From: a virus
Taxonomy: Duplodnaviria > Heunggongvirae > Uroviricota > Caudoviricetes
DNA length: 64,000 nt
Reading direction: 5' to 3' (one strand)
IMG/VR virus record: IMGVR_UViG_3300028591_000125
Numbering within the stretch: position 1 is the first letter of the stretch; every line of letters starts with the position of its first letter. The notes beneath the pieces are model-generated. The model searched no databases. It was not told the DNA's origin and saw only the letters and a program-made list of their open reading frames with translations. Made by a program: the position numbers and the translations under genes. Below, piece after piece: positions 31,096 through 58,498 of this stretch.

Positions 31096-31170
31096 ATCAA
31101 TTCAGTTTAAATTATTAAGTTTCATTCTATTAATAAGGAGTCCAGTTTATTTCGAGTGTGAAATCTTAAT

Positions 31171-34505: not shown

Positions 34506-34623
34506 ATAATTTTTATTAGTATGGTAGTAGTATTACAATTTATGGGTTTTGTGTCTAATTAGTGCTATATAGGAAATCAAAATTCTTATATAGCATTTAT
34601 TTTCCCCTAATACCCTTAATACT

Positions 34624-36906: not shown

Positions 36907-36932
36907 CAATAAATTTTGAGAGTTTAAAAATT

Positions 36933-37007
36933 GGTGTGTTAGTTCAGTTTGGTTAGAATACATGCCTGTCACGCATGGGGTCACGGGTTCGAGTCCCGTA
37001 CACACCG
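36933..37007 (+). tRNA. tRNA-Asp (GUC)
   Basis: Acceptor GGTGTGT/ACACACC, anticodon stem CATGC/GCATG with loop CTGTCAC, T-loop TTCGAGT. Confidence 0.75.
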
Positions 37008-37062
37008 CATAAAAAAATAGATTGGATTAATTCCTTTCTATTTTTTATTTTCCTTATATATA

Positions 37063-42746: not shown

Positions 42747-42819
42747 AATTTCTAATTTTTAAAATTCTGGCACAGGCCCCTGGAAAGGGCCCTGGCCTGT
42801 ATTTCATATATAAGAAATA

Positions 42820-43160
42820 CAAGTCTTCTGGAGTGTGTTTTTCCAATTTTAAATGTAAATAATGGGCTTCCTTTAAATAACCATTTCCATTTTTTCCATT
42901 TTTGGAAAATAGGAAAATTAGATATTATATTCTATGGGTTTACCCCTGCACAAGCGTTAAGAAATTCCGTTAAAGGCCGGAACGGACGTTGTGGAGGCCT
43001 AGGAATTTTAGCTTAGTGCATTGGGTAATCAGAGAGACGGGTTCAATTCGTTAACGAAATGGAATGTAGCTTGAGTGTTAACGAAAGCGGAATGGAATGG
43101 AGTAGAATTGTGGCACGTAGTGGGAAGGCGTCTCTCTCGGTTATAATACACAGGCTTTGC
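42820..43160. other. ORF-free GC-richer region with short direct repeats upstream of helicase-like gene; candidate replication origin
   Basis: Direct repeats CCATTT(T) x3 (42882..42910), GTTAACGAAA x2 and GGAATG x3 (43050..43110). A terminator is upstream and the promoter with a GC hairpin is downstream (42755..42790). Confidence 0.35.
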
Positions 43161-43220: not shown

Positions 43221-43630
43221 TTTAAACACTCTTTTAAACTAAATGCATCTTCTAGGTCCTTAAATACCTGATCTATTTCTTTCTTTGCCATCTCATCACC
43301 TCTTTTATAGACAAATGAAAACTGATCATGTGTACCGTCTCTATATTCATGGCATAGAAAACGACCTATACATAAATCATTCATACCTTCTATCTTAACA
43401 AAAGCGATTCCGGTATATTTAAACTTATATGTAAATGGAATTGAAATCCCATATACACTTTCCGTTTCGATATATGGTTGTTGCATTTTACTAGGATAAA
43501 TACAACCTTTAATATATCCTTTAGTACACATTATTTCATTAACCAGGGAACCTATGAATCTACATTTGAAACTAGCCTCTTTATAAAAATCAAATCTTTC
43601 TGCTATAAATAATGGTTGGTTTTTCTTCAT
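43214..43630 (-). CDS. hypothetical protein
   Basis: 138 aa ORF overlapping the upstream gene by ATGA. Confidence 0.5.
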   Translation of the reverse strand: MKKNQPLFIAERFDFYKEASFKCRFIGSLVNEIMCTKGYIKGCIYPSKMQQPYIETESVYGISIPFTYKFKYTGIAFVKIEGMNDLCIGRFLCHEYRDGTHDQFSFVYKRGDEMAKKEIDQVFKDLEDAFSLKECLKE

Positions 43631-45789
43631 ATTTCCCTTAGTTTCCTCTCATAGAATTCATAGCTATTTTCGAGTTTAGCTTGTTTCATTCTATCTTCAG
43701 TCAATGCGTAATCTCCTTTTCCTTCTGTTTCTTTTATAGTTTCGAGGTATTCAGGTTCTAGCATTTTACCTTTTTCGACTAGTTTAAGGGCCAGATTTTT
43801 AATTAGTTTTTTATTAGCTCCTATTATATTCTTAGTTTTATTCACAAGACCCTCATACCAGACTCTAATTTGTGTTTTTATTTCAGTATCATCGAATCCA
43901 TTAGGTATACCGTTATTATTATACAGAACGGCCGGATTGTGATAGTAATAAGGTCCAAAGAATCCGCCAGTATAGATATCATTCGTCATATCTATCATCG
44001 CCGTCCAAAGATCGCTGCCTGAACCAAGTAAAATTCTGTTATTATCTTGGAAAATAATTTCTTCAGCGCAATAACCGGCGATAGATACCATGACGTTTAT
44101 TTCAAGGTCGTATTTAGTATCAATTTCATCATACATTTCGGAATCATGGTATATAGTAATTCCGCCCTTATTAGAATCAACGCCAAGGATAGCATTAGGA
44201 GCTCTACCGGTTAAATAAGACATAACTACAGCGTGTCCAGCCTCATGAACGGAAGATGCGAATTTAAGTTTTCTATTATCCGGGTTTCTAAGTTTACCGA
44301 GTTCAAGTGGTATAATTTTCTCAGAGTCGCCGTAATATATAGTAACTGAATCCTTAGAATATCCAAGTTCAGGGTTTTTCACACCTACTTCCACATTTTC
44401 TTTCATATCTTTAATTAGGATATCAGAGAAAATAGGAGTAAATATAGTTCCGATAGTTGTAAATAGCGGACGTACACCTTGAGCGGGATAGACGCCTTCA
44501 GAGTAAATTAAATCTCTAAAGTCCTGAGTAACTGAGACTTTAATACCAGTAGTTTTAAAGAAGTCGTTGCAGTTCCTATCAATTTCTTTTTTAATAAGTT
44601 CTTCAAAATGGACTTTCTTAAGAGTAGGGTATTTAATTATATTGTTACCTATTCTACTAAGTTGTTCTGGTTTAAATCTTCTAAGTAATGAATCTTTAAT
44701 TTCAGATATAGATACTTTTCTAGTTTCGTCGTAGAATATATCAGCATCAATATCGGGGTTCAAGTCTTTAGAAGCGGGAAAAGCCTCATCCAAATTACCC
44801 AAGACGAATATAAGAGACTTTTTACAATCAATGAAATTAGGAGTATTATATTTAGTTCTACATGCTTTTAGAAACTCAGCAAATTCAATTACAGTTTTGA
44901 ATGAGTTAATTTCGTTGATATAGTCTAAGTATTTTTTATCAGGTTCAATTCCTTTAAGCCTGATAATAAGAGTCCTAAGAATATTTGGTTGTATTATAGG
45001 AAGTTCTCTATAAGGATCTTTTTCTTTTTTACTTTTCTTATCACCACCACTTTCTTCTGTATCTGGTTCATCAAGGTCATCTTCAAATCCTTCTTCTTCA
45101 ATTTCCCATGACTTAGGTTTATAATAGTTAGGGATACCACGGCCGTAATAGAAGAATCCGAGGTTTTCTAATATTTCCTTTACATCTTCTTTTTTAACCA
45201 CATTTCCATTAACAAGTCCCACAGATTCATGACCTTTTGTATATTCAAGGAAGTCATCTATAAAATTGTTAAGGGTATTATAGTCATAGGAAGCGTTATC
45301 CTCATTTAGATTAAGAATTCCAGTATCCATAAGAGTCCAAACAGGTCTTATAGCGGATTTTATTTCAATTTCACAACCAGACTCATCAATAGTTCTAGCA
45401 TATTGGAATTCATCAAAAACAAAAACTAAGTCTTCGGTTAATGTTTTACTTGCTGCAGAGGTTGGTGAGTTTCCGTATCTTGAAATAGAGAAAAATTCAT
45501 TTAAAGTTTCTACTATTGATTTTCCGTTATCACCAGCTTCTTTACCGCAATCGAAGGACATTGTTTTATTTTTTATGTCAAGTAGTTCGATTAGTCTATT
45601 TATTACACTAGTCTTTCCTGTTCCCGTCATACCCCAGAGCGATACTATAACCGGCCTTTGAATAATTTGAGGAGTCACATACCAAGGAGTGACAGCCGTA
45701 ATTATCTTATCAATAATCTCATCAAGGCCGACAAATTCGCTCTTTAATATCTGACGGGCATTTTCAAGTTTTTCTATTCTTTCTTTCAT
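43627..45789 (-). CDS. soluble FtsH-like protein: AAA+ ATPase fused to M41-type zinc metalloprotease domain
   Basis: 720 aa ORF. N-terminal Walker A SLWGMTGTGKTSVINRL. C-terminal HEAGHAVV zinc-binding motif followed by IAGYCAEEIIF and GSGSDLWTA. No TM helix. Confidence 0.65.
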   Translation of the reverse strand: MKERIEKLENARQILKSEFVGLDEIIDKIITAVTPWYVTPQIIQRPVIVSLWGMTGTGKTSVINRLIELLDIKNKTMSFDCGKEAGDNGKSIVETLNEFFSISRYGNSPTSAASKTLTEDLVFVFDEFQYARTIDESGCEIEIKSAIRPVWTLMDTGILNLNEDNASYDYNTLNNFIDDFLEYTKGHESVGLVNGNVVKKEDVKEILENLGFFYYGRGIPNYYKPKSWEIEEEGFEDDLDEPDTEESGGDKKSKKEKDPYRELPIIQPNILRTLIIRLKGIEPDKKYLDYINEINSFKTVIEFAEFLKACRTKYNTPNFIDCKKSLIFVLGNLDEAFPASKDLNPDIDADIFYDETRKVSISEIKDSLLRRFKPEQLSRIGNNIIKYPTLKKVHFEELIKKEIDRNCNDFFKTTGIKVSVTQDFRDLIYSEGVYPAQGVRPLFTTIGTIFTPIFSDILIKDMKENVEVGVKNPELGYSKDSVTIYYGDSEKIIPLELGKLRNPDNRKLKFASSVHEAGHAVVMSYLTGRAPNAILGVDSNKGGITIYHDSEMYDEIDTKYDLEINVMVSIAGYCAEEIIFQDNNRILLGSGSDLWTAMIDMTNDIYTGGFFGPYYYHNPAVLYNNNGIPNGFDDTEIKTQIRVWYEGLVNKTKNIIGANKKLIKNLALKLVEKGKMLEPEYLETIKETEGKGDYALTEDRMKQAKLENSYEFYERKLREI

Positions 45790-45859
45790 ATATTAAAAAT
45801 TTTACTGACATAATGCATATATAAGGAAATCAAGAAGGCGTAAACTCCTTATATATGTT

Positions 45860-46141
45860 ATGAATAAGATTTTTGTATATGCTAAGGGAAGGAACCTAGT
45901 ATATTATAGAGAACAGGATCTAGGAATAAGACCTAGAGCAACATATATACACATCTTACGTCAATTTAGGAAAGAAGTAGGAGAGTTATTAAAAGAATTA
46001 CCGAGTACAGATCCTTTATTTGGTTTATTCTCAGATATAGTAGCTCAAGTACCAGAAAAGCCTAAGACGAAAGAATGTGATGGTTATATTTTAAAAATCA
46101 AACAAATTTATGACAACAGAGGAATTGAAAAAACTGTATGA
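45860..46141 (+). CDS. hypothetical protein
   Basis: 93 aa ORF. Motif CTCCTTATATATGTTATG. Confidence 0.45.
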   Translation: MNKIFVYAKGRNLVYYREQDLGIRPRATYIHILRQFRKEVGELLKELPSTDPLFGLFSDIVAQVPEKPKTKECDGYILKIKQIYDNRGIEKTV

Positions 46142-46436
46142 GGAGAAGGACCTTATTCTGATTAAATTCGGAGCTACTTGGTGTGGTCCTTGTAAAGCTA
46201 TGGAACCGGTTTTGAAAGAAGTAGCTGAAGAAAGACCGGATGTTTGTGTACTTGATTTGGATGTTGAAGAGAATGAAGAACTAGTATCATTGTTTAGAGT
46301 GAGAAATGTACCTGCTTTATTTCTGATTAAAGAAGGAGTAACAGTAGATAAGTTCGTAGGTGGTGCATCTAAAGAACAAATACTAAGTTTTATCAATGGG
46401 CAACAGGGAAAACAAAAAGAAGAGGCGGCTAGCTAG
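46110..46436 (+). CDS. trx: thioredoxin
   Basis: 108 aa ORF with the active site WCGPC in a thioredoxin-length protein. Confidence 0.8.
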   Translation: MTTEELKKLYEEKDLILIKFGATWCGPCKAMEPVLKEVAEERPDVCVLDLDVEENEELVSLFRVRNVPALFLIKEGVTVDKFVGGASKEQILSFINGQQGKQKEEAAS

Positions 46437-46719
46437 ACACTTAAGAAACAAAGCTAAAGACGAAACGCACAAAAAAGAAGCTTGGGAGGAAGGTAAATTA
46501 ATTGAACCTAATCATAATGGAGGTTATTATCCAAAAGAGTATAGCATAGAATTAGGTGCTAGACTTATGGAGAAACAATTTCAGCCGTTTAGAGGAAAAA
46601 TTAGAGATTACCTTTTGATGTGTGATCCTGAAGCTAGAGATGAAAATTGGAAAGCTTTGAAACAGGTTTATGATTCTTGGCTTGAAAATAAAATAAAAGG
46701 AGAGGAAGATGGTAAATGA
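46396..46719 (+). CDS. hypothetical basic protein
   Basis: 107 aa ORF overlapping the thioredoxin 3' end by 41 nt. Confidence 0.4.
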   Translation: MGNRENKKKRRLARHLRNKAKDETHKKEAWEEGKLIEPNHNGGYYPKEYSIELGARLMEKQFQPFRGKIRDYLLMCDPEARDENWKALKQVYDSWLENKIKGEEDGK

Positions 46720-47170
46720 CGATACCTTAATAAAATACGCATACAAAATGGGCTATAAAGAAGTTTGGCCTGATTTTGTTATGAAAATGAAGGAACGAAT
46801 GATAGATATGAAGCTCGGTTTTCCAGGGATAGGAAACAACGACCTAACTCTTCTAGAATATGGAAAACTGGGCATAGGAGATTTATTTATATATGATCCC
46901 TATGTAGAAGTTCCTCAGGGTATTGTCTATGATGAAGCTCCAGTTATGTTGAGAATACTGGAAGACGGGTTAGGATATGTAGAAGGTATTGGAAAAGGAG
47001 ATGATAGTATAAGAGATCCTTACCGAATAAATATAAGATGGAGAGATACTGTACAATTACCTCCCCTAAATCCAGAATTCTTAGTATTCAGAGTAGATTC
47101 AAGACCAACTATGAATGGAGGGTCGGCTTATTACTACTTCTTTAAAGCCTATCATGATAACAGAACTTAA
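46709..47170 (+). CDS. hypothetical protein
   Basis: 153 aa ORF. Confidence 0.5.
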   Translation: MVNDDTLIKYAYKMGYKEVWPDFVMKMKERMIDMKLGFPGIGNNDLTLLEYGKLGIGDLFIYDPYVEVPQGIVYDEAPVMLRILEDGLGYVEGIGKGDDSIRDPYRINIRWRDTVQLPPLNPEFLVFRVDSRPTMNGGSAYYYFFKAYHDNRT

Positions 47171-47176
47171 AATAAG

Positions 47177-47581
47177 ATGACAACAACGGTATATTTGATT
47201 TTAACAGGGATTAGTTTATTCATATTTTGGTTAGGTCTTTGTAGTAGGAAAGCTTTATATTATGAAGGAGAAGAGGAGGGATGGTTATATCTAAAGAATG
47301 CAGTTCCAGAAAATATAGTGTGGAAGAGAAAAAAATCCCCTATATATTTATGGATTCTTATTACATTTTTTGGATTAATCCCCTCTGCAAATATAATTTT
47401 AGCGCTACTATTAATATTTGTTAATTTAATTGGAGCAATAATATTAGTTTTTGATAAAAATTACTGTTCAATGAGTATTTTTAGTAGCTGTTTCTGGTTC
47501 ACTCAGATATTTTTAAAAATGTCTTGGAATAAAACTAAATTTAAAACTAAATTTATAAACTTTTTAAAAAAAGAAATTTAA
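47177..47581 (+). CDS. membrane protein
   Basis: 134 aa ORF with three hydrophobic helices. Confidence 0.5.
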   Translation: MTTTVYLILTGISLFIFWLGLCSRKALYYEGEEEGWLYLKNAVPENIVWKRKKSPIYLWILITFFGLIPSANIILALLLIFVNLIGAIILVFDKNYCSMSIFSSCFWFTQIFLKMSWNKTKFKTKFINFLKKEI

Positions 47582-47583
47582 TT

Positions 47584-47781
47584 ATGCACAAGAAGCTCAA
47601 AAAATTGTTAAAAGAAGCCGAAGAAATGTTAGGAAAAGAGTTCACAGAAATTATTGAAGTGAATGAAAACAAAGTAATCGGAAAAAGGATCGATAAAAAA
47701 GGAAAAAGAAAATTTCAAACTACGGTGACATTAGATAAAAGTAAACACCAAAGAAATATTTCAATTGTCCCGATTAAATAA
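47584..47781 (+). CDS. hypothetical protein
   Basis: 65 aa ORF followed by a hairpin and T-run at 47790..47820. Confidence 0.45.
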   Translation: MHKKLKKLLKEAEEMLGKEFTEIIEVNENKVIGKRIDKKGKRKFQTTVTLDKSKHQRNISIVPIK

Positions 47782-48099
47782 AAAAAAATAGAGAGGAAAT
47801 TAAATCTTCTCTTTTTATTTTGAAAATAAAATGGGCTAATGCCCTATTAATAATTTTGTTATTTTTATGTCGAGTGGTACTCAGAGGGGGATGCTTTGGA
47901 AGAAGCTCCCTCCTTTCCCACAAATTGTTTTTTGTGTCGAGTGGTACTAAGAGTTTTTATAAGGCAACAACTATAACTCCGTTCCCACATGGTTTTTTAT
48001 GTTGTTTAAATTAAAATGTGTAAAAATAATCCTAAGCTATTGCATTACGCGGCTTAGGTTTTCTTTTTTGTTTCATATATAAGGCTTTCAGTACCTTTT

Positions 48100-48330
48100 C
48101 AGACGGCCTTATTTTTGTGTCAATTTTTAATGATTTTCTTCTATTTTATCTATTTAGCTGAGGCCGGTCGTGGCCAGAACTCAAATAAGAGCGAAATTTT
48201 ATAACCTACTCTTTTCTTTTAAACCATGATATCGTTTTTACGACTGGATATTTTTACTAAAAGAATTTTCGATAAACTCTGTAAATTTAAGTTCTGAGAA
48301 CCAATCTATATAACCGGCCTCAACCCTATG
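48100..48330 (-). ncRNA. candidate structured RNA (nested inverted repeats)
   Basis: GAGGCCGGT (48143..48151) pairs with ACCGGCCTC (48313..48321). CAGAACT (48160..48166) pairs with AGTTCTG (48291..48297). A promoter motif is immediately upstream at 48335..48350 and there is no ORF. Confidence 0.35.
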
Positions 48331-48403
48331 TATTTCTCTACATATATAAGGCTTTTAGTACTGTTTTGGGTGGAAAATAAAAGAGGCCTTTAAACCTCTT
48401 TCC

Positions 48404-48478
<75 letters not shown>

Positions 48479-48598
48479 CTATTCTAACATATATAAGGAT
48501 TTCAGTATATTCTAAAACAAAAAAAAAATAAACTAAAGGGACCACAATGGATCCCTAAAGTATAACAACATCAATAGATAATAACATATATAAGGATT

Positions 48599-48784
48599 TC
48601 AAACAGAACAACTGGTCTCTGTATCAAGTATCCAATATTCCTCACAATTATCAAAATCGTTCGCTGATAATTCTTTATTTAATCTTTCTACAGTTTTCTT
48701 TGCTTCCTCTAAGTTATCTGTAGAAATTCCAGTCTCTAGAATCATATCTCCCTTTACAATTTGATATTTATTCATAGTTTTCAT
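48599..48784 (-). CDS. hypothetical protein
   Basis: 61 aa ORF. Confidence 0.4.
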   Translation of the reverse strand: MKTMNKYQIVKGDMILETGISTDNLEEAKKTVERLNKELSANDFDNCEEYWILDTETSCSV

Positions 48785-49038
48785 TTTATTTCTCGTCTAT
48801 CTTTATATTCATAGTGATACGAACGAAATGAAGTTACATTATTATAATTTATTCGAAGAGTATTTTTAAGTGATTCTTTTGACATAATTTTCAATACCAT
48901 CTTTCGTGATAATTTTTTTATTTGTTTAAATGAATATAATGTAAAAGTATAGTTCGCACCTAAAAACTCTTTAGTAAATTCTATATAATAATAATGACTT
49001 GGAGTTTTCGCTTTATATTCTGTAACGTAAATTTTCAT
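48781..49038 (-). CDS. hypothetical protein
   Basis: 85 aa ORF. Motif rc at 49040..49054. Confidence 0.45.
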   Translation of the reverse strand: MKIYVTEYKAKTPSHYYYIEFTKEFLGANYTFTLYSFKQIKKLSRKMVLKIMSKESLKNTLRINYNNVTSFRSYHYEYKDRREIK

Positions 49039-49054
49039 AACATATATAAGGAAA

Positions 49055-49082
49055 TAAAAAGATAGAAGTTAATCTATCTCTT
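49055..49082 (-). terminator. intrinsic terminator; stop codon of 49069..50202 sits in the hairpin loop
   Basis: Minus-strand AGATAGATTAACTTCTATCT followed by a T-run. Confidence 0.55.
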
Positions 49083-50202
49083 TTATAGTCCAACCATAAG
49101 GGCAACCACTATTACTATTTAAAGGAATATCTTTAACTTTTCCTTTATTATATATTATACCATGAGTAGATACATTTTCTAACCAGTTAAGAGTGTTATG
49201 TTTATCCCATAACTGAGTTGTGTTTATGGTAATAGTAATATTGTTTAATGATGTACAACCATTGAACATACTACTATAACAATGATTAGCCAAAGTAGTA
49301 GCATGTAATTCAGGAGCTTCCGTTAATGAAGTACAACCTTCAAACATACTAAAATAACAATGATTAGCTAAAGTAGTAGCTGGTAATTGAGGAGCACTTT
49401 TTAATGATGTACAATTATCAAACATATACGCATAACAACTCTCAGCTAAAGTAGTAGCGGGTAATTCAGGAGCAGTTTCTAATGATGTACAATCATAAAA
49501 CATACCAGTATAACAACCCTTAGCTAATTTAGTAGCTGGTAATTGAGGAACACTTTTTAATGAAGTACAAATAGCAAACATCCGAGAATAACAACCCTTA
49601 GCCAAAGTAATTGCCAGTAATTGAGGGGCTTCTGTTAATGAAGTACAACCTTCAAACATACCATTATAACAATAATCAGCTAATGTAGTAGAAGGTAATT
49701 TAGGAGTAGTAGTTAATGAAGTACAATCCCGAAACATATTACTATAACAATACTCAGCTAAAGTAGTAGCAGGTAGTAGTTGTGGGGCTTTTATTAATGA
49801 AGTACAATTATAAAACATACCAGCATAACAACGATCAGTTAGAGTAGTAACAGGTAGTATTAAATTAGATGCATCAAGTAAATAACTAGTAGAGTAATAG
49901 CTATTCGCAAATAAACGATAAAAACAAGCACTATTACCATTAAATTTTGTCTCATCTCCCGTAAACTTATCTCCATATATCAGTGACATTATATTTCCAC
50001 TAACATTAAAATAAGTTTTACAATTTATACGTGAAACTGAGGTTGATCTTAAATACAGTTTTCTTTTATGAAATTTTAATTCTTGTTTATTTAATGCAAC
50101 CCAGTTCACTGTATCAAAGGAATATTCTATATTCTTTCCAATTATTTCTAGTATATTAATTTGTTTAAAAGCTAAATTCTCTATACAAAAATAATTTTTC
50201 AT
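49069..50202 (-). CDS. DUF285-type (MFxxCxSL) leucine-rich-repeat protein
   Basis: 377 aa ORF with about eight tandem 24-aa repeats of the form LPATTLA..CY..MF..CTSL..AP. Confidence 0.6.
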   Translation of the reverse strand: MKNYFCIENLAFKQINILEIIGKNIEYSFDTVNWVALNKQELKFHKRKLYLRSTSVSRINCKTYFNVSGNIMSLIYGDKFTGDETKFNGNSACFYRLFANSYYSTSYLLDASNLILPVTTLTDRCYAGMFYNCTSLIKAPQLLPATTLAEYCYSNMFRDCTSLTTTPKLPSTTLADYCYNGMFEGCTSLTEAPQLLAITLAKGCYSRMFAICTSLKSVPQLPATKLAKGCYTGMFYDCTSLETAPELPATTLAESCYAYMFDNCTSLKSAPQLPATTLANHCYFSMFEGCTSLTEAPELHATTLANHCYSSMFNGCTSLNNITITINTTQLWDKHNTLNWLENVSTHGIIYNKGKVKDIPLNSNSGCPYGWTIKEID

Positions 50203-50219
50203 AACATATATAAGGAAAA
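50203..50219 (-). promoter_or_regulatory. same motif on minus strand (reads CATAACATATATAAGGAAA on plus) at start of 49069..50202
   Basis: Identical arrangement at 12124, 12520, 17225, 49038 and 53065 on minus. Confidence 0.6.
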
Positions 50220-50220
50220 T

Positions 50221-50252
50221 AAAAAAAAAGACCTAGAAATTAATCTAGATCT
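50221..50252 (-). terminator. intrinsic terminator of 50261..50443
   Basis: Minus-strand hairpin AGATCTAGATTAATTTCTAGGTCT followed by T9. Confidence 0.55.
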
Positions 50253-50260
50253 CTTTTATT

Positions 50261-50443
50261 TTACTGTTCGTCATTTGTAGAATTCACAATGTTTTTCTTT
50301 TTAGCAAGATAACCACAAATTCCACCCAATACAAAACCGGCACCTGCAAAAATAGCTGCCACTTGATTAGTACAGATAAGAACAATCTCTGTAACTACTG
50401 CTGCTACTCCAATTCCTAGAGCAATCCACTGTTTTACTGTCAT
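50261..50443 (-). CDS. small two-helix membrane protein
   Basis: 60 aa ORF with two hydrophobic segments and a charged C-terminus. Confidence 0.45.
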   Translation of the reverse strand: MTVKQWIALGIGVAAVVTEIVLICTNQVAAIFAGAGFVLGGICGYLAKKKNIVNSTNDEQ

Positions 50444-50534
50444 ATTATTTATATTTTAAAGGTTAATTACATTTATAAGGATTTCTCGGCTTCTAAGGTG
50501 CAAAAAAAATAAGATAGAATTTAATCTATCTTAG

Positions 50535-50619
50535 TGGACAGGGAAGGACTTGAACCTCCAGAGCCGTTAAGGCACCTGATTTACAGTCAGGCCCGCTACC
50601 AATTACGGTATACCTATCC
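50535..50619 (-). tRNA. tRNA-Tyr (GUA), long variable arm (bacterial type)
   Basis: Reverse complement has acceptor GGATAGG/CCTGTCC and anticodon stem CCTGA/TCAGG with loop CTGTAAA, a 17-nt variable arm and T-loop TTCAAGT. The D-arm is atypical. Confidence 0.65.
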
Positions 50620-50644
50620 ATCATATTTATTATTTCATATTTTG

Positions 50645-50720
50645 CGGCCTTTCTTGGATTCGAACCAAGGACACCTTGATTAACAGTCAAGTGCTCTAAA
50701 ACCAACTGAGCTAAAAGGCC
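50645..50720 (-). tRNA. tRNA-Asn (GUU)
   Basis: Reverse complement: acceptor GGCCTTT/AAAGGCC, anticodon stem CTTGA/TCAAG with loop CTGTTAA, T-loop TTCGAAT. Confidence 0.75.
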
Positions 50721-50727
50721 AAATTTG

Positions 50728-50802
50728 TGGTCCTTGAGGGACTTGGACCCCCGACCCTCGCATTATGAGTGCGGTGCTCTAACCAAACTGAGCTAAAGGA
50801 CC
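50728..50802 (-). tRNA. tRNA-Met/Ile2 (CAU), elongator-type
   Basis: Reverse complement: acceptor GGTCCTT/AAGGACC, anticodon loop CTCATAA. The T-loop TCCAAGT deviates slightly from consensus. Confidence 0.6.
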
Positions 50803-50865
50803 TCGAAGTGCAAATACAGAGAAGGAGATTAAGCGAAGAAAAATTCTGTATAAGCACCTCTTTTG

Positions 50866-50946
50866 TACTTCCGGTGGGATTCGAACCCACAATGCTTTCG
50901 CACTGCATCCTAAGTGCAGCCTCTATACCAATTCGAGTACGGAAGC
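50866..50946 (-). tRNA. tRNA-Leu (UAG), type II
   Basis: Reverse complement: acceptor GCTTCCG/CGGAAGT, 3-bp D-stem, anticodon stem CTGCA/TGCAG with loop CTTAGGA, 12-nt variable arm, T-loop TTCGAAT. Confidence 0.7.
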
Positions 50947-50952
50947 GTTTTG

Positions 50953-51026
50953 AGCAGAAGATGGGATTCGAACCCACGAGATCCTGCTTGGAAGGCAGGT
51001 GCACTAGGCCTCTATGCGACTTCTGC
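50953..51026 (-). tRNA. tRNA-Gly (UCC)
   Basis: Reverse complement: acceptor GCAGAAG/CTTCTGC, anticodon stem CCTGC/GCAGG with loop CTTCCAA. Confidence 0.75.
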
Positions 51027-51042
51027 TTAATTCTTGTTTTTG

Positions 51043-51127
51043 CGGAGAGGGAGGGATTCGAACCCCCGGACCCGTGAAGGTCGGTGCTTTTCAAGAGCAC
51101 TGCCATAAACCACTCGGCCACCTCTCC
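51043..51127 (-). tRNA. tRNA-Ser (UGA), type II
   Basis: Reverse complement: acceptor GGAGAGG/CCTCTCC, anticodon stem GTGCT/AGCAC with loop CTTGAAA, long variable arm. Confidence 0.75.
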
Positions 51128-51135
51128 AAATTTTG

Positions 51136-51210
51136 TAGCCGGTAGGGGATTCGAACCCCTGATTTTGAGAATGAAAATCTCACGTCCTAGGCCAACTAGA
51201 CGAACCGGCC
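51136..51210 (-). tRNA. tRNA-Glu (UUC)
   Basis: Reverse complement: acceptor GGCCGGT/ACCGGCT, anticodon stem TGAGA/TCTCA with loop TTTTCAT, T-loop TTCGAAT. Confidence 0.7.
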
Positions 51211-51607
51211 AATTATTATTATTCACTAATTCTAAGAAATTAGTTTTCATTTTCACAACTATAAGGAATTTAAGGGATTTCAAGTGCAAAATAAAAGGGA
51301 ACATTTAAGCTTCCTCTTACCAAACACATTAATATTAAATCATTGACATATATAAGGATTTGAGATGGATAAAAAAATACTACCCAAATTTAATCGGATA
51401 GTATTTTCTCAACACATTAAATCTTATAATTATGACATATATAAGGAATTCAAGGGATAAAAAAAAGAGAGGACCCGTTAAGATCCTCCCCATGCAGAAA
51501 CAGTAACTTATTACACATATAAGGAATTCAAGGGAAATAAAAAGAAGGACCTAAAATTAGATCCTCCCTTTCTTAAAAACTGTAACTTATGGACATATAT
51601 AAGGATT

Positions 51608-52666
51608 TCAAAGCTTTCCAGATATAATTGTACTAGTTATTAAGTCCACTATATTTTCTAGGTCGCTTTTCTTTACGATCTCATTACTACTATGCATACT
51701 TAAGAGACCGAAACTAAGAAGACCACATTCACAATCACCTGCAAAGTCCTGGAATGATTTAGTATTAGTTCCTCCCGCTCTAGTAGTATAAGTTTTAGCG
51801 GGGATTTCATTTACCCTAGCTTGTTCTCTAAAAAGTGTACATAATCTTTCACTTTTTTCAGGACCGTAAGCAATCAAAGCCCCATCTCCCAAGTTTATAT
51901 CTAGATCTTTAAACTCGCTTCCACACAATTCAGTATCGGCAAAGGTACAATCAATGTCTATACTAATATCTGGGTTTATGTTTCTAGCCATTCTTTTAGC
52001 GCCATTTAAACCCGTCTCTTCTTGTGTTGCTGCGCCGAAATAGATGTCATAGTTTTTTGCGTCGTATCTCATTCCGGCCAATTTTTCGAGGACTTTAGCA
52101 ACGATCCATACACCACCTTTATCATCTAGTCCTGTTCCTCTTATATATCCGTTTCCAAAATTAGTCTCGATTTCTGGCCGGTATATTATCAAGGCCCCAG
52201 GAAACACACCGAATTCCTCAGCTTGTTTTTTGTCTTTCGCTCCTATATTAATTCGAAAGTCTAACCAATCCCCAAGCTTTTTTCTATCGGTGTCTAAATG
52301 AAGGGCCTGTTTTTGTACGACGCCTGGAATTCTTTTATCACCGGCGCATACTATAACATTTCCAGATACCAAAGACTTCAAACAGATTCCGGCCGACTGA
52401 GAAAACATTAAAGTTCCCTTATCCGTTATCTTAGTTACTCTTCCGCAAACTGTATCGATATGTGCTGAAATTAGGATCTTAGTTTTGTTTTCACCTTCTC
52501 CACTATATTTCCAGACTGAGTTACCTATTTTGTCTGTATAATAATGTTGAAGTGAGATCATAGGGTTTTTCGCTTGATCCTCCATAAACTGATCCCAAAC
52601 ATTAATAGCATCTCCTTCTTTACTGCTAGGAGAAACAGCCAAACAAAGATCTTCTAATAATTTCAT
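51608..52666 (-). CDS. M42-family (FrvX/YpdE-like) metallo-aminopeptidase-like protein
   Basis: 352 aa ORF. The N-terminus LLEDLCLAVSPSSKEGD...ILISAHIDTV is M42/M20-like as I recall the family. Confidence 0.5.
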   Translation of the reverse strand: MKLLEDLCLAVSPSSKEGDAINVWDQFMEDQAKNPMISLQHYYTDKIGNSVWKYSGEGENKTKILISAHIDTVCGRVTKITDKGTLMFSQSAGICLKSLVSGNVIVCAGDKRIPGVVQKQALHLDTDRKKLGDWLDFRINIGAKDKKQAEEFGVFPGALIIYRPEIETNFGNGYIRGTGLDDKGGVWIVAKVLEKLAGMRYDAKNYDIYFGAATQEETGLNGAKRMARNINPDISIDIDCTFADTELCGSEFKDLDINLGDGALIAYGPEKSERLCTLFREQARVNEIPAKTYTTRAGGTNTKSFQDFAGDCECGLLSFGLLSMHSSNEIVKKSDLENIVDLITSTIISGKL

Positions 52667-53065: not shown

Positions 53066-53184
53066 AACATATATAAGGAGTTTAAATTGGGTTTTTGCAG
53101 AATAGATAATCTTAATACCTTATATAAGTACGGAGAATATTAAAGCTCCGTATAAATTTAAAAATAACAAAATAAAAATATATT

Positions 53185-54831
53185 ATGAGTGAATTTGAAA
53201 ATTTAGGAAAGCAAGATGAAATTAAATTGCTTAAATTCCCAGAGTGTATTCGAGCTAGAATAGGTATGTATTTAGGGGGCACTGAGTCTACCGATACATT
53301 ACTTAGAGAGATTGTCGATAATTCTGTGGATGAGTGTTACGTAGCTGCTAATCAGATTATAATTGATCGAGATATGAATGACTATATTCTAGTAGCAGAT
53401 AATGGTAGAGGTTTAAATATTGAATACTCTAAAGAACTACGTGATGGACAACCTGTAGTACAAGCAGATCTATCTATTTCAGAACTTCATTCAGGTTCTA
53501 AGTTTGTAGATAATAAACAAGCTACCGTTGGGATGAATGGGATAGGCTCTTCTGCGGTAAATGCGGTTTCCCAGAATTACATATTACTTTCTAGAATCAC
53601 TCCAAATAATTTTGATAAATCTACTAAAGAAGTATACGATTTATGGAATTCAGCTGGTCCTCGTAGTAAAAAAGATCTATTTTATATTGTATGGTATAAA
53701 AAGGGTTATAAATATTACGAAGGTGCTCTAAAGAAGGCTGATATAGAAAAATTGGTGTTTACGGAAGGAAAGAAAAAACGCGGAGCAACGTGGAAAGAAT
53801 TACCTTCCGGGATGTCAACGATTGTATTATTTCAGCCTGATTCCGATATTTTTGATAAGTCTGCATTAAAACCAGAATTACCAATAAAGAATTTACAGTA
53901 TTTTCTACTTATACAAGAAAAGTTTTATAAGAAGAAAGTTACTATAGATCTTGAAGGTACTGTTTTTACTAGTGCAGATACAACAACTTATCAATTTGAA
54001 TTCACAAAGAGATTAATACCAGAAGATACTAGCTTAAATGAACAGCTTGATCTTTATATAACGTTTGAAGCTGATCCTGAGTTAAATCCAAAAGTATATA
54101 CAGGTTCAGTTAATTCTTTGAATGTAGACTCTGGAGTTCATATTAGTTGGGCAGAGAGTTGTTTTATGGAGGCACTGAAAGCTGAATTTGGAATTAAACA
54201 CAAATATCTTACAAATGGATTAAAGATGTGTGTTGTAATTTTAGCAAGTGAGGCTGTATATAATTCTCAAACTAAAGAGAAATTAAAAGGATTAGCAAAA
54301 GTAAAACAATCTGACTTTGCACCACTGATTAAAGAGTTTCAGAGAATATTCAGAAAAAATCTAGAATATTGGAGTGAGCATGTAAATAGATTAAATTACT
54401 TAGCTGACTCTATGAAACATCTTGGTGCTGCAGAGAAAGCCCAGAAAATAATGGACGATGCTGCAGGTCGTGGTATGTATAGATCAAAAGCTGATCTAGT
54501 TGATGGTTTTAGTGATGCAACAGCTGGTCCTGATGATAGATGGAATTGTTCTATTTTTCTCACAGAGGGGGCATCAGCCGCAGGCGGCTTAAAGGCTGCA
54601 AGAAAAACAACCAAGTATGATGCAGTTATGCCACTACGAGGAAAAGTTAAAAATGTTTGCAATGATAATGCAAACCAGATGATGGACAATAAAGAATTTT
54701 ATACTATATTTAAAGTTATAGGACTTGGTATAGATATTAATAATGTCACATCAGGTTGTGAAACACCAGAGCAAGCATATGAAATGATAAAACAAAAAAC
54801 AAGATTTGGCAAAATAATTATAGCAACGGAT
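53185..54831 (+). CDS. type II DNA topoisomerase large (GyrB-like ATPase/TOPRIM) subunit, exon 1 of 3 (T4 gp39/gp60-like)
   Basis: GHKL ATPase N-terminus followed by the TOPRIM region EGASAAGG...KIIIATD. The reading frame runs into an in-frame stop 23 codons after the conserved D (KQKLSENIEIYSENPIVAENSR, stop). Confidence 0.75.
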
Positions 54832-55142
54832 AAACAAAAGTTGTCCGAGAATATAGAAATATATTCTGAGAATCCCATTGTTGCGGAAAACTCTCGTTAG
54901 GCTAAAAGTACAGTAAAGTGTAATAAGTTTTTAGATAGAGACAATTCGCTTAATTATAAAATTTTATAATTGACAACGACTATCCAGAAATGGAGTAGAG
55001 TAATAAGTCTTTTATGATTACTCGAAAGATGGGACCCCTAACGTAAAGACGAGGGTGATGATATAGTCTTGACACGCTCAGAGATGAGGTGAGATCTTAA
55101 CTGATCTATATTAAGAGTAGGCGACTTAATATAAAAAATTCG
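54832..55142 (+). mobile_element. group I intron 1 (311 nt, no ORF) in topoisomerase gene
   Basis: Exon ends in U and the intron ends in G. Candidate IGS GUCCGA at intron +11 pairs with exon ACGGAU. Exon junction is IIIATD|ADEDG. In-frame stops are at 54898 and 55128. Confidence 0.65.
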
Positions 55143-55356
55143 GCTGATGAAGATGGTCTTGCCATCCAAAACGGATTGATGTATGCATTTATGAAGTTTG
55201 CCAGATTTATGATAGATTTTGGTTTAGTTTATATAGCTGAATCACCAATATTTGAACAGAATGGACAATATTTTTATCCAAGTAGTGAAAGACAGGCTGG
55301 AACACAGTTTCCAGTTGGTCTAGATACATCAAAACATTTTAGACGTTTTAAAGGGT
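55143..55356 (+). CDS. topoisomerase II large subunit, exon 2
   Basis: Encodes ADEDGLAIQNGLMYAFMKFARFMIDFGLVYIAESPIF...RFKGL. This matches GyrB [37 protein letters not shown]...RYKGL. There is no start codon between the upstream stop and DEDG. Confidence 0.7.
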
Positions 55357-56964
55357 TAACGGCATAGCCCCGTTACATAGTAATATGTAAATGAAAATTC
55401 CGTTAAAAGCTGGGAACTCCTGTTAGGTTAAGAGTACAATAAAGTGTAACAATCTCTTAAATAGGGACAATCAGCAGTTATATAGCAATAAAATAAATAA
55501 AGATTATGATTAGAAATGATGTAAAATTATATTTACAGGAGAATAATTTAAATATTGATGACATATTTCTAAAACACAGAGATACTATTGATCCTCCAAA
55601 TTATAGGGTTGGTAGAATCTTTAGAGATAATGTCGAATCAATCTTTGTATTAAATGAAGTAAATGGTCTTATTATGGATTATTTCTATGATGATGTTCCA
55701 GAAATTTTAGAATTTGATATAAGTAATTATAATAATTCTCTTGTAATTAAAGATGGTAATATAGAATCGGGAAAATATTTTATTAGTAGAGATGGTAAAT
55801 TAAAATCTATATATACTAATAAATATTTAACAATTCAATCAAATGAACTATATCCGATTTATAATATTAAATTAATAAATTCAAAAAATAGATTAGGACA
55901 TAGTAAGAGGTTACAAATTCATAGAATAGTAGCTTCCGTGTTCGTTCCTAATTTCAATCCAAAAGATAGAACTTTAGTTGATCATATTAATAGAGATAAG
56001 AATGATTACTCAATAACAAATCTTCGATGGGTTACCCAAAAAGAAAATGCAAATAATTCTCCAAAAAAGAGTTTTATAAAGAATAGGCAATATGTATCCT
56101 ATAAAGATAAAGAACTTACTATAAAAGTAGGTACATACTCTGACGAGGATTTATTAAATCATCCTAGATATAATAGAGGTGTTATATTAGATTCTCTGTA
56201 TAGCAGCAATTATCACTATGGTCTATATTGGAAAATAGTTGATTTAAATTTATTAAATTATTTATCATCTATTGGAAAAACGTTTGAAGATATAGATGAT
56301 AGTTTATGGGTTAATACTAGATTACCAGGTGTTATGGCTCATCCTTTTGGAATTTTAAAAATAACCACTCAAAAGAAAAGTCATAATACAACATATATAA
56401 CGTGTGGTTATGAAAGACATGAAAAATATAAATATCTTACAGTTAGTATCCAAGGAACTAATTATCTTGTTCATAGAATAATAGCAGAAGCTTTTATAAA
56501 TAAAAATAAAGAAATAAAATTTCCATATGAAGTGGATCATATTTCTACAATTCCTACAGACAATAGAGTTGAAAATCTTAAAATATGTACTCACTTAGAA
56601 AATGTTAATAATCCGAGTACAAAATTAAAATTATCTACACCTGTAATTGCTGAAGGAAAAGTATTTAATTCTATCTCAGATTGTGCTGATTATTATAAAG
56701 TAGCAAGATCGACTATAGTTAATTGGATAAGAAAAGGTAAAGATGGTTTTAGTTTTAAAAATTAAAAATAAAAATTGCTATATAACTTCAACGACTATCC
56801 AGAAATGGAGTAGGGTAATAAGTCTTTAATGATTACTCGAAAAGCGGAAAATCTATGATTTAAATTATAGATTATAGATTAAGATATAGTCTGCTCTCAT
56901 GGGAAATCATGAGGAGAGAAATCTCATGTTAAGAATTAAAAGACGACTTAACATAAACATAAGG
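55357..56964 (+). mobile_element. group I intron 2 (1608 nt) carrying an HNH homing endonuclease ORF
   Basis: The exon ends at U in AAAGGGU and the intron ends at G. Candidate IGS GCCC at +11. Its 5' and 3' core segments are homologous to intron 1. Confidence 0.65.
55506..56765 (+). CDS. intron-encoded HNH homing endonuclease (tandem HNH_3/AP2-like modules)
   Basis: 419 aa ORF. Two copies of the HNH core: VDHINRDKNDYSITNLRWVTQKENANN and VDHISTIPTDNRVENLKICTHLENVNN. It sits inside intron 2. Confidence 0.7.
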   Translation: MIRNDVKLYLQENNLNIDDIFLKHRDTIDPPNYRVGRIFRDNVESIFVLNEVNGLIMDYFYDDVPEILEFDISNYNNSLVIKDGNIESGKYFISRDGKLKSIYTNKYLTIQSNELYPIYNIKLINSKNRLGHSKRLQIHRIVASVFVPNFNPKDRTLVDHINRDKNDYSITNLRWVTQKENANNSPKKSFIKNRQYVSYKDKELTIKVGTYSDEDLLNHPRYNRGVILDSLYSSNYHYGLYWKIVDLNLLNYLSSIGKTFEDIDDSLWVNTRLPGVMAHPFGILKITTQKKSHNTTYITCGYERHEKYKYLTVSIQGTNYLVHRIIAEAFINKNKEIKFPYEVDHISTIPTDNRVENLKICTHLENVNNPSTKLKLSTPVIAEGKVFNSISDCADYYKVARSTIVNWIRKGKDGFSFKN

Positions 56965-57149
56965 TAGGTTCATTAAATCGTGATGATGTTTATAACGCGT
57001 TTTATGATCCAAGCAAACGTCGACTATTCCAAGTTACGACTGATGGAATGGATTTTGCTATGAAACTGGTAGAAGATATTGATGCCAGAAAAGAATTATT
57101 ATATGATAAAAATATTTTAAGTAATCCTTATAATTTTAAAGATCTTTGA
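56965..57149 (+). CDS. topoisomerase II large subunit, exon 3
   Basis: GSLNRDDVYNAFYDPSKRRLFQVTTDGMDFAMKLVEDIDARKEL matches the GyrB C-terminal [28 protein letters not shown]. Exon sum is 2046 nt, 681 aa. Stop TGA is at 57147. Confidence 0.65.
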
Positions 57150-57151
57150 TT

Positions 57152-58498
57152 ATGGGAAGAAAAAAGAAAGAATGTGTTGAATTACCATTAGCAACACCTG
57201 AATTATTATATAAACCTGTTGGACAAATAGCTGAAGAGTGTTATACATTCTACGGTGCTTATGTAAATAATTTTAGAGCAATCGCAAATGTAGCTGATGG
57301 AATGAAGGTTTCTTATAAAAGATTAGTATGGGCAGCTTTACAATACCCAAAAGGAAAAGATGTACCAACTATGAACTTAGTTTCATCATTATCTCGTTGG
57401 CATCCACATAACACGTCGGCTTGTGAAGACCTGAATGCACAATTAGTAAAATCTGGTGTATTTTCTGGTTCCGGATTTTTTGGAAATAAACAAATTGATG
57501 GTGTAGATTGTCCACACGCAGCTACTAGGTATACTAAGAATAGATTATCAGATTTGTATTGGGATATTATAGGAGATCTAGTAAAAGAAGTTCCTATGGT
57601 AGAATCCCCTCAAGGTGAAATGGAGCCAATTAATATACCGCTTCCATTACCACTTTGTTTATATCTGAAATCTTTGGTAACCGGTCTTGGAGTAGGAGTT
57701 ATGTGTATATATCCTAACTTCTCACCAAAATCTTTATATCAAGCTTATATACACGATAATCCTGATTTGCTTGAACCTAATATGAACATTTTTATAGATA
57801 AAGCAAATTCAGAGTTAAGAAGATTATGGGAAACTGGTAAAGGTAGAGTTATATACTCTTACAAAATATCCAGATCAATGAGCCATGATGGTAAAAGTGA
57901 AGGTATCTTATTTGAAGGTGATACTGGAATTTTTACACCGAGATTAGGAAAATTTGATAAGCTAGTCAGTGAAGGAAAAATTTATATAGAAGACCTTACT
58001 GATGAGAATGGACCAAAGCTTTTCGTGGGTAGAGTTCCTGGCGCAAAAGGTATAACAGTAGAGGATATAGAAGGAATAGCAAGAAAAGTTTGTTATGATT
58101 CTACTACATATAACCTCAATGTAACCAATGGAGAAACTTGTTTTAGAATTCCCCTAAAAGACTGGTTAGATTATACTTACAAAAATTACATAGAACTAAT
58201 TACAAAAGTCAATCAAAAGCGTATAGAAAAATGTAAGTTTAATATATCAGTTTTAGAAGCTTTGCCTGTAATTGCTGATTATGTTCTCAATAAAAATCCT
58301 AAAGCTGATGATAAAGAAATTCAGAAAGTTTTAGGGTATAGTGAAGAAGTAATTAGTGTAGTTATGTCCAAGCCTATTTCCTATTTACGTAAGAATAAAG
58401 ATACGAGTGATAGGATAAAGAAGCTTAAAGATGAATTGAAGGAGCTTAAGAGGTTTGATCCTGTTAAGTATACCGAAGAAATAATAAATAAACTTTGA
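57152..58498 (+). CDS. type II DNA topoisomerase medium (GyrA-like, T4 gp52-like) subunit
   Basis: 449 aa ORF. Its length matches T4 gp52 and it follows the large-subunit gene directly, as in T4-like phages. Start ATG at 57152 overlaps the upstream stop (TGATTATG). The ORF-track start at 57146 is a TTG. Confidence 0.7.
   Translation: MGRKKKECVELPLATPELLYKPVGQIAEECYTFYGAYVNNFRAIANVADGMKVSYKRLVWAALQYPKGKDVPTMNLVSSLSRWHPHNTSACEDLNAQLVKSGVFSGSGFFGNKQIDGVDCPHAATRYTKNRLSDLYWDIIGDLVKEVPMVESPQGEMEPINIPLPLPLCLYLKSLVTGLGVGVMCIYPNFSPKSLYQAYIHDNPDLLEPNMNIFIDKANSELRRLWETGKGRVIYSYKISRSMSHDGKSEGILFEGDTGIFTPRLGKFDKLVSEGKIYIEDLTDENGPKLFVGRVPGAKGITVEDIEGIARKVCYDSTTYNLNVTNGETCFRIPLKDWLDYTYKNYIELITKVNQKRIEKCKFNISVLEALPVIADYVLNKNPKADDKEIQKVLGYSEEVISVVMSKPISYLRKNKDTSDRIKKLKDELKELKRFDPVKYTEEIINKL

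Follow-up and report, generated by a model that had tools for sequence, protein, structure and literature searches.

We analysed a 64-kb stretch of DNA (the window; ~31% GC, ten transfer RNA (tRNA) genes) from the Caudoviricetes record IMGVR_UViG_3300028591_000125 of IMG/VR. On its minus strand, next to a tRNA-Met gene, lies a unit of 170 nucleotides (nt) whose ends are complementary to each other and which follows a copy of a recurrent promoter motif (Table 1). The unit is part of an island of short transcription units. On the minus strand these come in the order promoter with a ~60-nt hairpin/U-run, promoter with tRNA-Met and hairpin/U-run, promoter with the 170-nt unit, promoter with hairpin/U-run and two copies of a 60-nt motif; beyond the island there are convergent plus-strand genes. 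Judging from the sequence, we suggest that the unit is a lineage-specific, promoter-driven and stem-closed non-coding RNA (ncRNA) in this tRNA/small-RNA island, a reading which we hold to have an even chance of being correct.

The initial annotation of this site described nested inverted repeats that bracket about 170 nt, and a repeat search of the window recovers both of them. The outer pair (I14), TGAGGCCGGT at 48159-48168 and ACCGGCCTCA at 48313-48322, is complementary in 10/10 positions (100%), and the inner pair (I9), CAGAACTCAAAT at 48175-48186 and ATTTAAGTTCTG at 48285-48296, in 11/12 (92%) with 98 nt between the arms. The outer arms as such enclose 144 nt only; the figure of 170 nt applies to the closed unit (48157-48326), because wobble pairs lengthen the outer helix to 13 base pairs (bp). 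The predicted stalk comprises 29 bp with interruptions: helix P1 of 13 bp, an internal loop of 8x1 nt, helix P2 of 4 bp, a UCU bulge and helix P3 of 12 bp, inside which a junction with three hairpins is predicted. Ten of the 13 pairs of P1 are G-C, within a genome of ~31% GC. The pair probabilities of the stalk range from 0.76 to 1.0 apart from the innermost pair of P3 with 0.62. All four non-Watson-Crick pairs of P1-P3 are U.G pairs on the minus strand, and their plus-strand equivalents are A.C mismatches.

The closed structure on the minus strand is indeed very stable. The 170-nt core has a minimum free energy (MFE) of -52.3 kcal/mol (z -5.49), and the plus strand reaches -38.4 kcal/mol (z -3.66); for neither strand was any of 200 shuffled sequences equally stable. 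A longer stretch of 241 nt gives -56.2 kcal/mol on the minus strand (z -4.05, 0/200 shuffles equally stable) versus -41.6 kcal/mol on the plus strand (z -1.16, 25/200). The gap in stability between the strands is due to the wobble pairs of P1-P3. We also scanned the window on both strands in 180-nt windows with 12-nt steps and regressed the MFE on composition. Among the 10,638 windows that of the unit ranks third in composition-adjusted MFE, and it does so on the minus strand only.

It could be argued that the structure is a chance product or relic in a fast-evolving spacer between repeated promoters, without function as RNA or as DNA. A single GC-rich perfect 10-nt inverted repeat with a spacer of 40-300 nt is in fact not rare on its own: the window has two compared with a shuffle mean of 0.2, and 31 of 200 shuffles (~15%) contain at least one. 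The nested coaxial set is another matter. Three coaxial nested helices with 29 bp, the absence of any equally stable shuffle, the third rank in the scan and the GC-rich P1 all speak against chance. In favour of chance are the orphan status of the unit, which is missing from the relatives, and its unstructured interior (both described below). On balance we regard a chance origin as very unlikely.

The promoter motif directly upstream of the unit on the minus strand was likewise identified correctly, as a copy without mismatch at 48358-48341. In plus-strand spelling the 17-mer (ATATATAAGGNTTTYAR) occurs 16 times in the window with 0.12 copies expected. Read on the coding strand the consensus is YTRAAANCCTTATATAT followed by G, and 27 sites of the window match it with at most two mismatches (for example 12128-12144(-), 14156-14172(+), 26781-26797(+), 31166-31182(+), 45840-45856(+) and 53069-53085(-)), among them the divergent back-to-back pairs at 26768-26797 and 45817-45856. 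Most sites lie immediately 5' of a co-oriented ATG (often gttATG, TATATATgttATG) or of a tRNA, for instance 10 nt 5' of tRNA-Met and 8 nt 5' of tRNA-Gln; a minority is found before stretches free of open reading frames (ORFs) or within ORFs. At many sites the ATG follows after 2-4 nt, which implies leaderless or nearly leaderless messenger RNAs. The core of the motif, CCTTATATATG, recurs in related huge-phage loci (L004, L006, L016-L022 and others; labels of this type are our own). When IMG/VR was scanned with a 15-mer of the promoter, the matches were in mostly unrelated contigs, and the promoter together with the tRNA-Met anchor gave no match there. Given the motif statistics, the placement at gene starts and tRNAs, the recurrence in relatives and the perfect match, we consider the copy at 48358-48341 a credible promoter. 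A minus-strand transcript would start ~15 nt before the outer stem, probably at 48341 or a few nucleotides after.

The minus strand of the unit has no ORF of at least 20 amino acids (aa) and stop codons throughout all three frames, and the plus strand has only two ORFs, one of 29 aa with a TTG start and one of 23 aa. The claim that no frame exceeds a few codons understates the plus strand.

The ncRNA reading is further supported by the fact that the unit sits in a run of promoter-led, ORF-free units. Another ORF-free unit, 274-277 nt in length and located between two promoter copies, is near-identical in 32 IMG/VR contigs (L158-L190, 29-401 kb). It exists in eight sequence variants (GTTAATATAAGAATTTAATCTTCAC…), is composed of successive hairpins with U-runs and shows no sequence relationship to the 170-nt unit; in 30 of the contigs its longest ORF has 18 aa, in the other two 28 aa. 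We consider it a conserved candidate small-RNA locus of a widespread member of the clade. Its presence in 32 contigs makes ORF-free promoter-led units a habit of the clade.

Table 1. The 170-nt unit and its neighbours in the window (helices, loops, leader and trailer as predicted)
Feature	Position	Strand	Remarks
Promoter copy of tRNA-Met	48489-48505	minus	
tRNA-Met (CAU), upstream neighbour of the unit	48404-48478	minus	ARAGORN; Rfam tRNA 62.8 bits
Hairpin and U-run after tRNA-Met	~48372-48403	minus	
Promoter CTAAAAGCCTTATATAT followed by G	48341-48358	minus	no mismatch to consensus YTRAAANCCTTATATAT; 15 nt upstream of stalk
Predicted 5' leader UAGAGAAAUACAUA	48327-48340	minus	holds left direct-repeat copy AAATACATA (48335-48327)
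Core RNA, stem-closed, 170 nt	48157-48326	minus	based on MFE, z, pair probabilities and scan rank
P1 5' arm, RNA positions 3-15	48312-48324	minus	13 bp with 48157-48169, two of them U.G
Internal loop between P1 and P2, 8 nt on 5' side (8x1)	48304-48311	minus	
P2 5' arm, RNA positions 24-27	48300-48303	minus	4 bp with 48171-48174, pair probabilities 0.76-0.95
UCU bulge between P2 and P3	48297-48299	minus	
P3 5' arm, RNA positions 31-42	48285-48296	minus	12 bp with 48175-48186, one U.G
Interior, 98 nt, A/U-rich	48187-48284	minus	three predicted hairpins, pair probabilities 0.41-0.99, statistically unsupported
P3 3' arm, RNA positions 141-152	48175-48186	minus	partner of 48285-48296
P1 3' arm, RNA positions 158-170	48157-48169	minus	partner of 48312-48324
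3' trailer, A-rich, without U-tract terminator	48092-48156	minus	holds right direct-repeat copy AAATAGATA (48155-48147)
Next downstream unit	48022-48091	minus	promoter copy 48075-48091, hairpin CCTAAGC...GCTTAGG (48031-48058), AUUAUUUUU
Unit (abbreviated sequence)			GTTGAGGCCGGT…ACCGGCCTCAGC
Flanks of the unit			…CCACCYAAAACAGTACTAAAARCCTTATATATG on one side, CCTAAGCCGCG hairpin on the other

Several observations weigh against the ncRNA reading. First, the initial annotation predicted a multi-helix RNA and named a lack of stable structure beyond the two stems among the findings that would refute it. The excess stability sits wholly in the long-range stalk of P1, P2 and P3, which closes an A/U-rich loop. 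The inner 98 nt fold like shuffled sequence (MFE -13.8 kcal/mol on the minus strand, z -1.14, 21/200 shuffles equally stable), so the multi-helix interior is unsupported, and no fold beyond the stems has statistical backing. Second, a consensus terminator scan with a loop limit of 8 nt finds no terminator-like site after the unit (48092-48156, minus strand). The hairpin at 48031-48058, which is kept in the related locus L009 and which was missed by the same scan (its loop has 14 nt compared with the limit of 8 nt), is together with AUUAUUUUU the earliest plausible site of intrinsic termination for transcripts that read through from the unit. Third, we found no homologue of the unit in any collection searched and hence no evidence of conservation. 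Fourth, L009 keeps the promoter and lacks the unit, which must therefore be dispensable at that evolutionary distance. Fifth, the unit is flanked by a short direct repeat and has the layout of a mobile element.

The searches for homologues were as follows. With blastn, region 47800-48600 matched the INPHARED phages in its tRNA-Met part only, as did a megablast search with 20 kb. In IMG/VR an exact 31-mer had no match, and the gapped P1 arms had four; the contigs concerned all have 64-67% GC, and the sequence between the arms is unrelated. The 5' 20-mer was found in four unrelated, apparently coding contexts of JGI metagenomes, where the similarity ends with the 20-22-mer. Both termini of the unit together were absent from the GTDB genomes, in which the 3' 20-mer alone hit five unrelated sites of proteobacterial and Opitutia genomes (59-63% GC). 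The plasmids of PLSDB contained no match. Judged by their sequence context, we consider the non-self matches to be due to chance. Neither did nhmmer detect a homologue in 1.2 Mb of fetched loci, and a covariance model built from the single sequence (R1) retrieved only the unit itself from the window and ~650 kb of related huge-phage DNA. Apart from its own two arms the 64-kb window contains no further arm copy, and in 190 loci only same-locus copies were seen, which argues against a repeat family. We also considered as a paralogue the window's only other GC-rich perfect 10-nt long-range repeat (ACTTCTGCGC, 27085 and 27261). It folds like shuffled sequence (z -1.1 and -1.6) and has no match by R1, and this candidate was rejected.

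The comparison with three relatives shows how variable the island is. L009, the closest informative one, has the same frame, with a neighbouring 134-aa protein that is 70% identical, and carries neither tRNA-Met nor the 170-nt unit. The promoter of the unit has a recognisable orthologue there (CCGCCCTAAAAGGTATTGAAACCCTTATATATG vs CCACCCAAAACAGTACTAAAAGCCTTATATATG), at a distance of ~50 nt from the next promoter. The description of the promoter as the unit's own is thus only partly justified: it is a genuine, clade-wide and gene-start-associated element, but it is not specific for the unit. L147 is without tRNA-Met and its contig stops exactly at the promoter of the unit; L148 does have tRNA-Met and its contig stops inside it. 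From these differences we conclude that the island gains and loses units fast and that the promoter predates or outlives the unit. The remaining sequences add little. Three other samples contain contigs with 99.9-100% identity to the window; those encoding identical 134-aa and 58-aa proteins are of this kind and hence uninformative. The 96%-identical strain L008 ends in a 65-aa gene just before the island, and relatives retrieved with a 720-aa FtsH-like protein at 49-59% identity (L004, L006, L007, L155-L157) lack either the island or the RNA.

The tRNA-Met unit varies as well: it is present in the window and in L148 and absent from L147 and L009. The junction in L147 lies at a short microhomology of the TTTATTTT type, which suggests unit loss by slippage or recombination between A/T-rich repeats.

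The layout of the unit raises the possibility that a palindromic mobile insertion resembling a miniature inverted-repeat transposable element (MITE) is present, that is, a non-autonomous element of ~170 bp which entered a pre-existing promoter-led spacer with duplication of a 9-bp target. The RNA structure would then be a by-product and transcription incidental. MITEs and palindromic elements such as the Correia elements of Neisseria and the mycobacteriophage mobile elements (MPMEs) have ~100-450 bp, terminal inverted repeats and short flanking direct repeats, occur in many copies, are polymorphic in presence and absence between relatives and form long hairpins when transcribed. The unit too has terminal inverted repeats, ~30-42 nt long (P1-P3; four transitions, two indels), around an A/T-rich interior without significant structure. 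Both its ends are abutted by a direct repeat, AAATACATA (48335-48327) and AAATAGATA (48155-48147), which agree in 8/9 positions and lie 2 nt and 1 nt off the 13-bp helix of the stalk. When boundaries 170 nt apart were placed at random in the window 20,000 times, 0.9% of the placements had a match of 8/9 or better no more than 4 nt from both boundaries (p = 0.009). The plus strand is structured as well (z -3.66), as a DNA-level inverted repeat would be, and in L009, where the orthologous promoter and the downstream hairpin are both retained, only ~50 nt separate the two. The direct repeat is, however, imperfect and A-rich and was noticed post hoc, and the flanks collapse uncleanly onto the "empty site" of L009. 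Unlike a typical MITE the unit is single-copy in all collections searched: there is no second copy in the window, the 190 loci, IMG/VR, the JGI metagenomes, the GTDB genomes, the plasmids or the GenBank phages, and no transposase partner is known. Moreover, each of the four mismatches between the arms can form a wobble pair on the transcribed strand, for which we estimate a probability of ~1/16 under neutral transitions. Taken together, we see an insertion of this type as a possible but doubtful explanation. It is compatible with the ncRNA reading, as a palindrome that has inserted downstream of a strong promoter would be expressed as a stem-closed RNA in its own right. In our view the unit is probably a small ncRNA, and it possibly originated as a small mobile insertion.

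Alternatively, the unit could be a cis-acting RNA element, either a processing stalk or a 3' stabiliser, which punctuates read-through from the upstream tRNA-Met and small-RNA units. Stalks cleaved by RNase III, as in ribosomal RNA (rRNA) operons or of the R1.1 type in phage T7, are duplexes, long-range or in hairpin form, of about two turns with an asymmetric internal loop and are located between transcription units. The predicted stalk shares with them the lower stem, the asymmetric internal loop and the upper stem. The unit is also situated between short transcription units directly downstream of tRNA-Met and is without a terminator of its own. On the other hand its stalk would enclose ~100 nt of unstructured A/U-rich RNA instead of rRNA, and it does not lie between protein-coding genes. 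Punctuation is not obviously needed here, since the neighbours each have a promoter and most have a hairpin with U-run; a terminator-like hairpin of tRNA-Met already precedes the unit, and the relatives manage without it. A purely cis-acting role therefore appears quite unlikely to us.

A search with the Rfam covariance models, proposed in the initial annotation, assigned the unit to no known RNA family. At the gathering threshold the 4227 models of Rfam 15 detect the ten tRNAs of the window and nothing at the unit. Nothing appears at its site in the whole window at E ≤ 1 either, and at E ≤ 10, with 1 kb and 206 nt around the unit, the best overlapping matches score 13-17 bits compared with thresholds of 33-80. 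A tRNA is excluded by ARAGORN in default mode and by the Rfam tRNA model, which are both empty at 48157-48326, and there is no transfer-messenger RNA (tRNA-like domain plus tag frame) by ARAGORN or Rfam. 6S RNA, a long duplex whose large central bubble imitates an open promoter, has no Rfam match, and the fold predicted for the unit has a stalk that closes a multiloop instead of a bubble between two long arms. A retron msr-msd RNA has a1/a2 inverted repeats and, directly after it, a reverse transcriptase gene; in the unit the terminal inverted repeats are present, but there is no downstream minus-strand ORF and no reverse transcriptase domain in the neighbours. A riboswitch or 5' leader would need a co-oriented gene; instead a promoter copy, a hairpin with U-run and convergent plus-strand genes follow.

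We also asked whether the unit could be a degenerate tRNA-derived gene, that is, a tRNA interrupted by a long intron or a stable tRNA-like RNA of the kind of species 1 of phage T4. The unit adjoins tRNA-Met, AGAUUGGUU resembles a D-loop by eye, and ARAGORN at a threshold of 80% and with introns allowed imposes a tRNA-Val(tac) model, with an intron of 75 nt, on exactly 48159-48321. The forced model has an acceptor stem of 8 bp instead of 7 bp, a mismatched T-stem and no GTTCRANYC T-loop, and the relaxed program makes obviously spurious tRNA calls nearby as well. With the default ARAGORN run and the Rfam tRNA model both empty at the unit, we regard this explanation as effectively refuted.

T4 offers two RNAs for comparison: rnaC (species 1, 139 nt) and rnaD (species 2, 119 nt) are ORF-free small RNAs from the tRNA region with unknown role (PMC3014915, PMC9697503). 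Like these the unit is phage-encoded, ORF-free, small (170 nt compared with 119-139 nt) and adjoins a tRNA gene. In the T4 region (NC_000866, 70908-71171) we find rnaC to be strongly structured (z -4.57) with a T-arm of tRNA type, CCGGGUUCGAAUCCCGG, which the unit does not have. The T4 RNAs are processed from a tRNA precursor, in contrast to the unit with its own promoter copy. Model R1 gives at best 5.9 bits on the T4 region (E 0.86, on rnaC), that is, noise. The likeness to rnaC and rnaD is one of position only and there is no homology.

The unit and the Y RNAs (YrlA/YrlB), small ncRNAs of bacteria and phages, have in common that the 5' and 3' ends pair and that the long stem so formed encloses a larger loop or module. 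Y RNAs of the YrlA type are recognised by the motif GNCGAAN0-1G, the binding site of Rsr, in a stem near the 5' end, and they occur in some phages in association with genes for RNA repair and quality control (PMC4201824). A TROVE (Ro60/Rsr) gene on the same strand and no more than 4 kb away is a further mark of this type. The window does encode an RNA-repair nucleotidyltransferase of the RlaP family. The unit, however, lacks the motif, as the only CGAA is in the interior (AUCGAAAA), and it has neither a GUUCRANUC-type loop nor T- or D-arm-like stem-loops. Rfam shows no Y RNA match even at E ≤ 10, and a Pfam scan of ten ORFs from 43627 to 52666, the smallest ORFs being left out, detected LRR_5, Peptidase_M41/AAA and Peptidase_M42 and no TROVE/Ro60 domain. 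We therefore reject this assignment.

Returning to the reading as a promoter-driven ncRNA, we infer transcription, transcript ends, processing and action of the unit and suggest the following steps. Transcription would start just after the promoter core, at about 48341-48338 on the minus strand. The ends of the transcript would then pair into the interrupted 29-bp stalk and close a largely unstructured A/U-rich loop of ~100 nt. With no terminator after the unit, the 3' end would arise by read-through to the next hairpin and U-run (~48022), and the longer transcript could be trimmed back to the stalk or cleaved within it. Stalks with an asymmetric internal loop are the classic form of RNase III sites. 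The stalk probably sets the ends of the unit, and by analogy processing of the RNase III type is plausible. What results could be a small RNA that withstands nucleases, or an inner fragment of ~100 nt set free from the transcript, and it would act in trans in the course of infection. It is conceivable, and we hold this view weakly at best, that the A-rich loop or the double-stranded stalk is presented to, or is a decoy for, a host or phage RNA-binding factor. More improbable still is a far-reaching version, in which the unit would be the first member seen of a new RNA class of huge phages: promoter-led, with a 29-bp stalk that presents or releases ~100 nt of A/U-rich RNA to act in trans, for instance as a decoy or sponge that captures an RNA-binding factor of host defence or decay, within a fast-shuffling counter-defence island of tRNAs and mini-RNAs.

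Other short elements of the island deserve mention. Tandem mini-units composed of a promoter, ~60-80 nt and a closing hairpin with U-run occupy 51348-51611 and 48510-48602 on the minus strand. Four are in a row upstream of a 7-tRNA array (50534-51210) and one is upstream of tRNA-Met; they could be small RNAs or insulators. Those at 51595 and 51515 look paralogous (AUAAGUUAC.GUUU…GGAGGAUCU…). The repeated motif of ~60 nt is found at 47866-47925 (copy A), 47933-47992 (copy B) and L009 1483-1542 and has the form GTCGAGTGGTACTNAGAG-variable hairpin-NTTCCCACA in plus-strand spelling. The flanks are conserved, and the sequence of the central stem is wholly different between the copies with pairing kept. 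The plus strand gives the better fold for copy A and for the copy of L009, and the minus strand, by a small margin, for copy B; Rfam has no match to the motif. Looser GTCGAGTRG starts exist at 27317(-) of the window and at 8212(-) of L017. In L009 the motif is directly upstream of a GC-rich ORF of 97 aa (1170-1463, minus strand; PF08960, STIV_B116-like). This ORF, in an island of a phage of ~30% GC, takes the position of the second 60-nt motif of the window and looks like a foreign insertion. Between the window (48781-49105, minus strand) and the 99.93% identical contig L001 (8464-8787) there is a 1-nt indel, by which a 107-aa ORF in L001 becomes an 85-aa ORF plus a fragment in the window; the indel reflects either a frameshift variant or an error of assembly.

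Elsewhere in the window further candidate structures were noted. At 12550-12778 on the minus strand a promoter copy over the stop codon of the upstream gene is followed by ~227 nt without a detected ORF, with a predicted long-range closing helix and, ahead of the next gene, a strong hairpin; the stretch may be a long 5' untranslated region or an ncRNA. The stretch 27065-27464 (minus strand), which holds the repeat at 27085 and 27261 mentioned above, is promoter-led, has no long minus-strand ORF and ends in a hairpin with U-run common to a convergent 87-aa gene; one arm of the repeat may alternatively sit in the loop of a CCCCCUA/UAGGGGG hairpin. In the stability scan 34465-34644 and 42749-42928 were the most stable non-tRNA regions besides the unit. 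They score on both strands and resemble DNA palindromes or bidirectional terminators; the latter region overlaps the promoter-like TTCTTATATATG, followed by a hairpin, ACAGGCCAGGGCCC…GGGGCCTGT.

The window itself looks like part of a very large, low-GC phage of the class of roughly 300-400 kb. Its genes include those for T4-type topoisomerase II subunits, which are split by an HNH endonuclease, for Clp/FtsH-like AAA+ proteins and an M42 peptidase, and for a MoxR-type AAA ATPase whose neighbour matches CobT/vWA weakly. Homologues of the 720-aa FtsH-like protein number more than 1,400, on contigs that reach 416 kb, and a tblastn search with this protein detected no relative in 50,697 GenBank phage records. 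The HNH endonuclease ORF (419 aa, 55506-56765) lies between the topoisomerase II subunit genes (53185-58498, plus strand) in the typical layout of a homing-endonuclease insertion. The RlaP protein (358 aa, 32859-33935, plus strand; PF10127, E 5e-13) belongs to the Pol-beta-family nucleotidyltransferases of RNA-repair pathways. A tRNA-Gln and a tRNA-Asp are located at 36836-37008 (plus strand), and the related locus L006 encodes a PTS_2-RNA/Tpt1 domain. The clade therefore carries RNA-repair functions beside its tRNAs.

If real, the unit would be an addition without a family to the short list of stable phage RNAs beside tRNA genes, on which rnaC and rnaD of T4 are found, still without a known function decades after they were discovered, and it would come from a clade of phages of roughly 300-400 kb that one protein probe did not find among the GenBank phage records. 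Should it be a MITE-like insertion instead, it would rank as a rare case for a lytic huge phage. The wider context may outweigh the unit: a very conserved promoter with the core CCTTATATATG, messenger RNAs that are often leaderless and islands of tiny promoter-to-terminator units. We consider the unit a credible orphan candidate, and the promoter system with its mini-unit islands is arguably the more interesting lead. The content of these islands differs between close strains, and they would be a tractable place to seek RNA-based host manipulation by phages.

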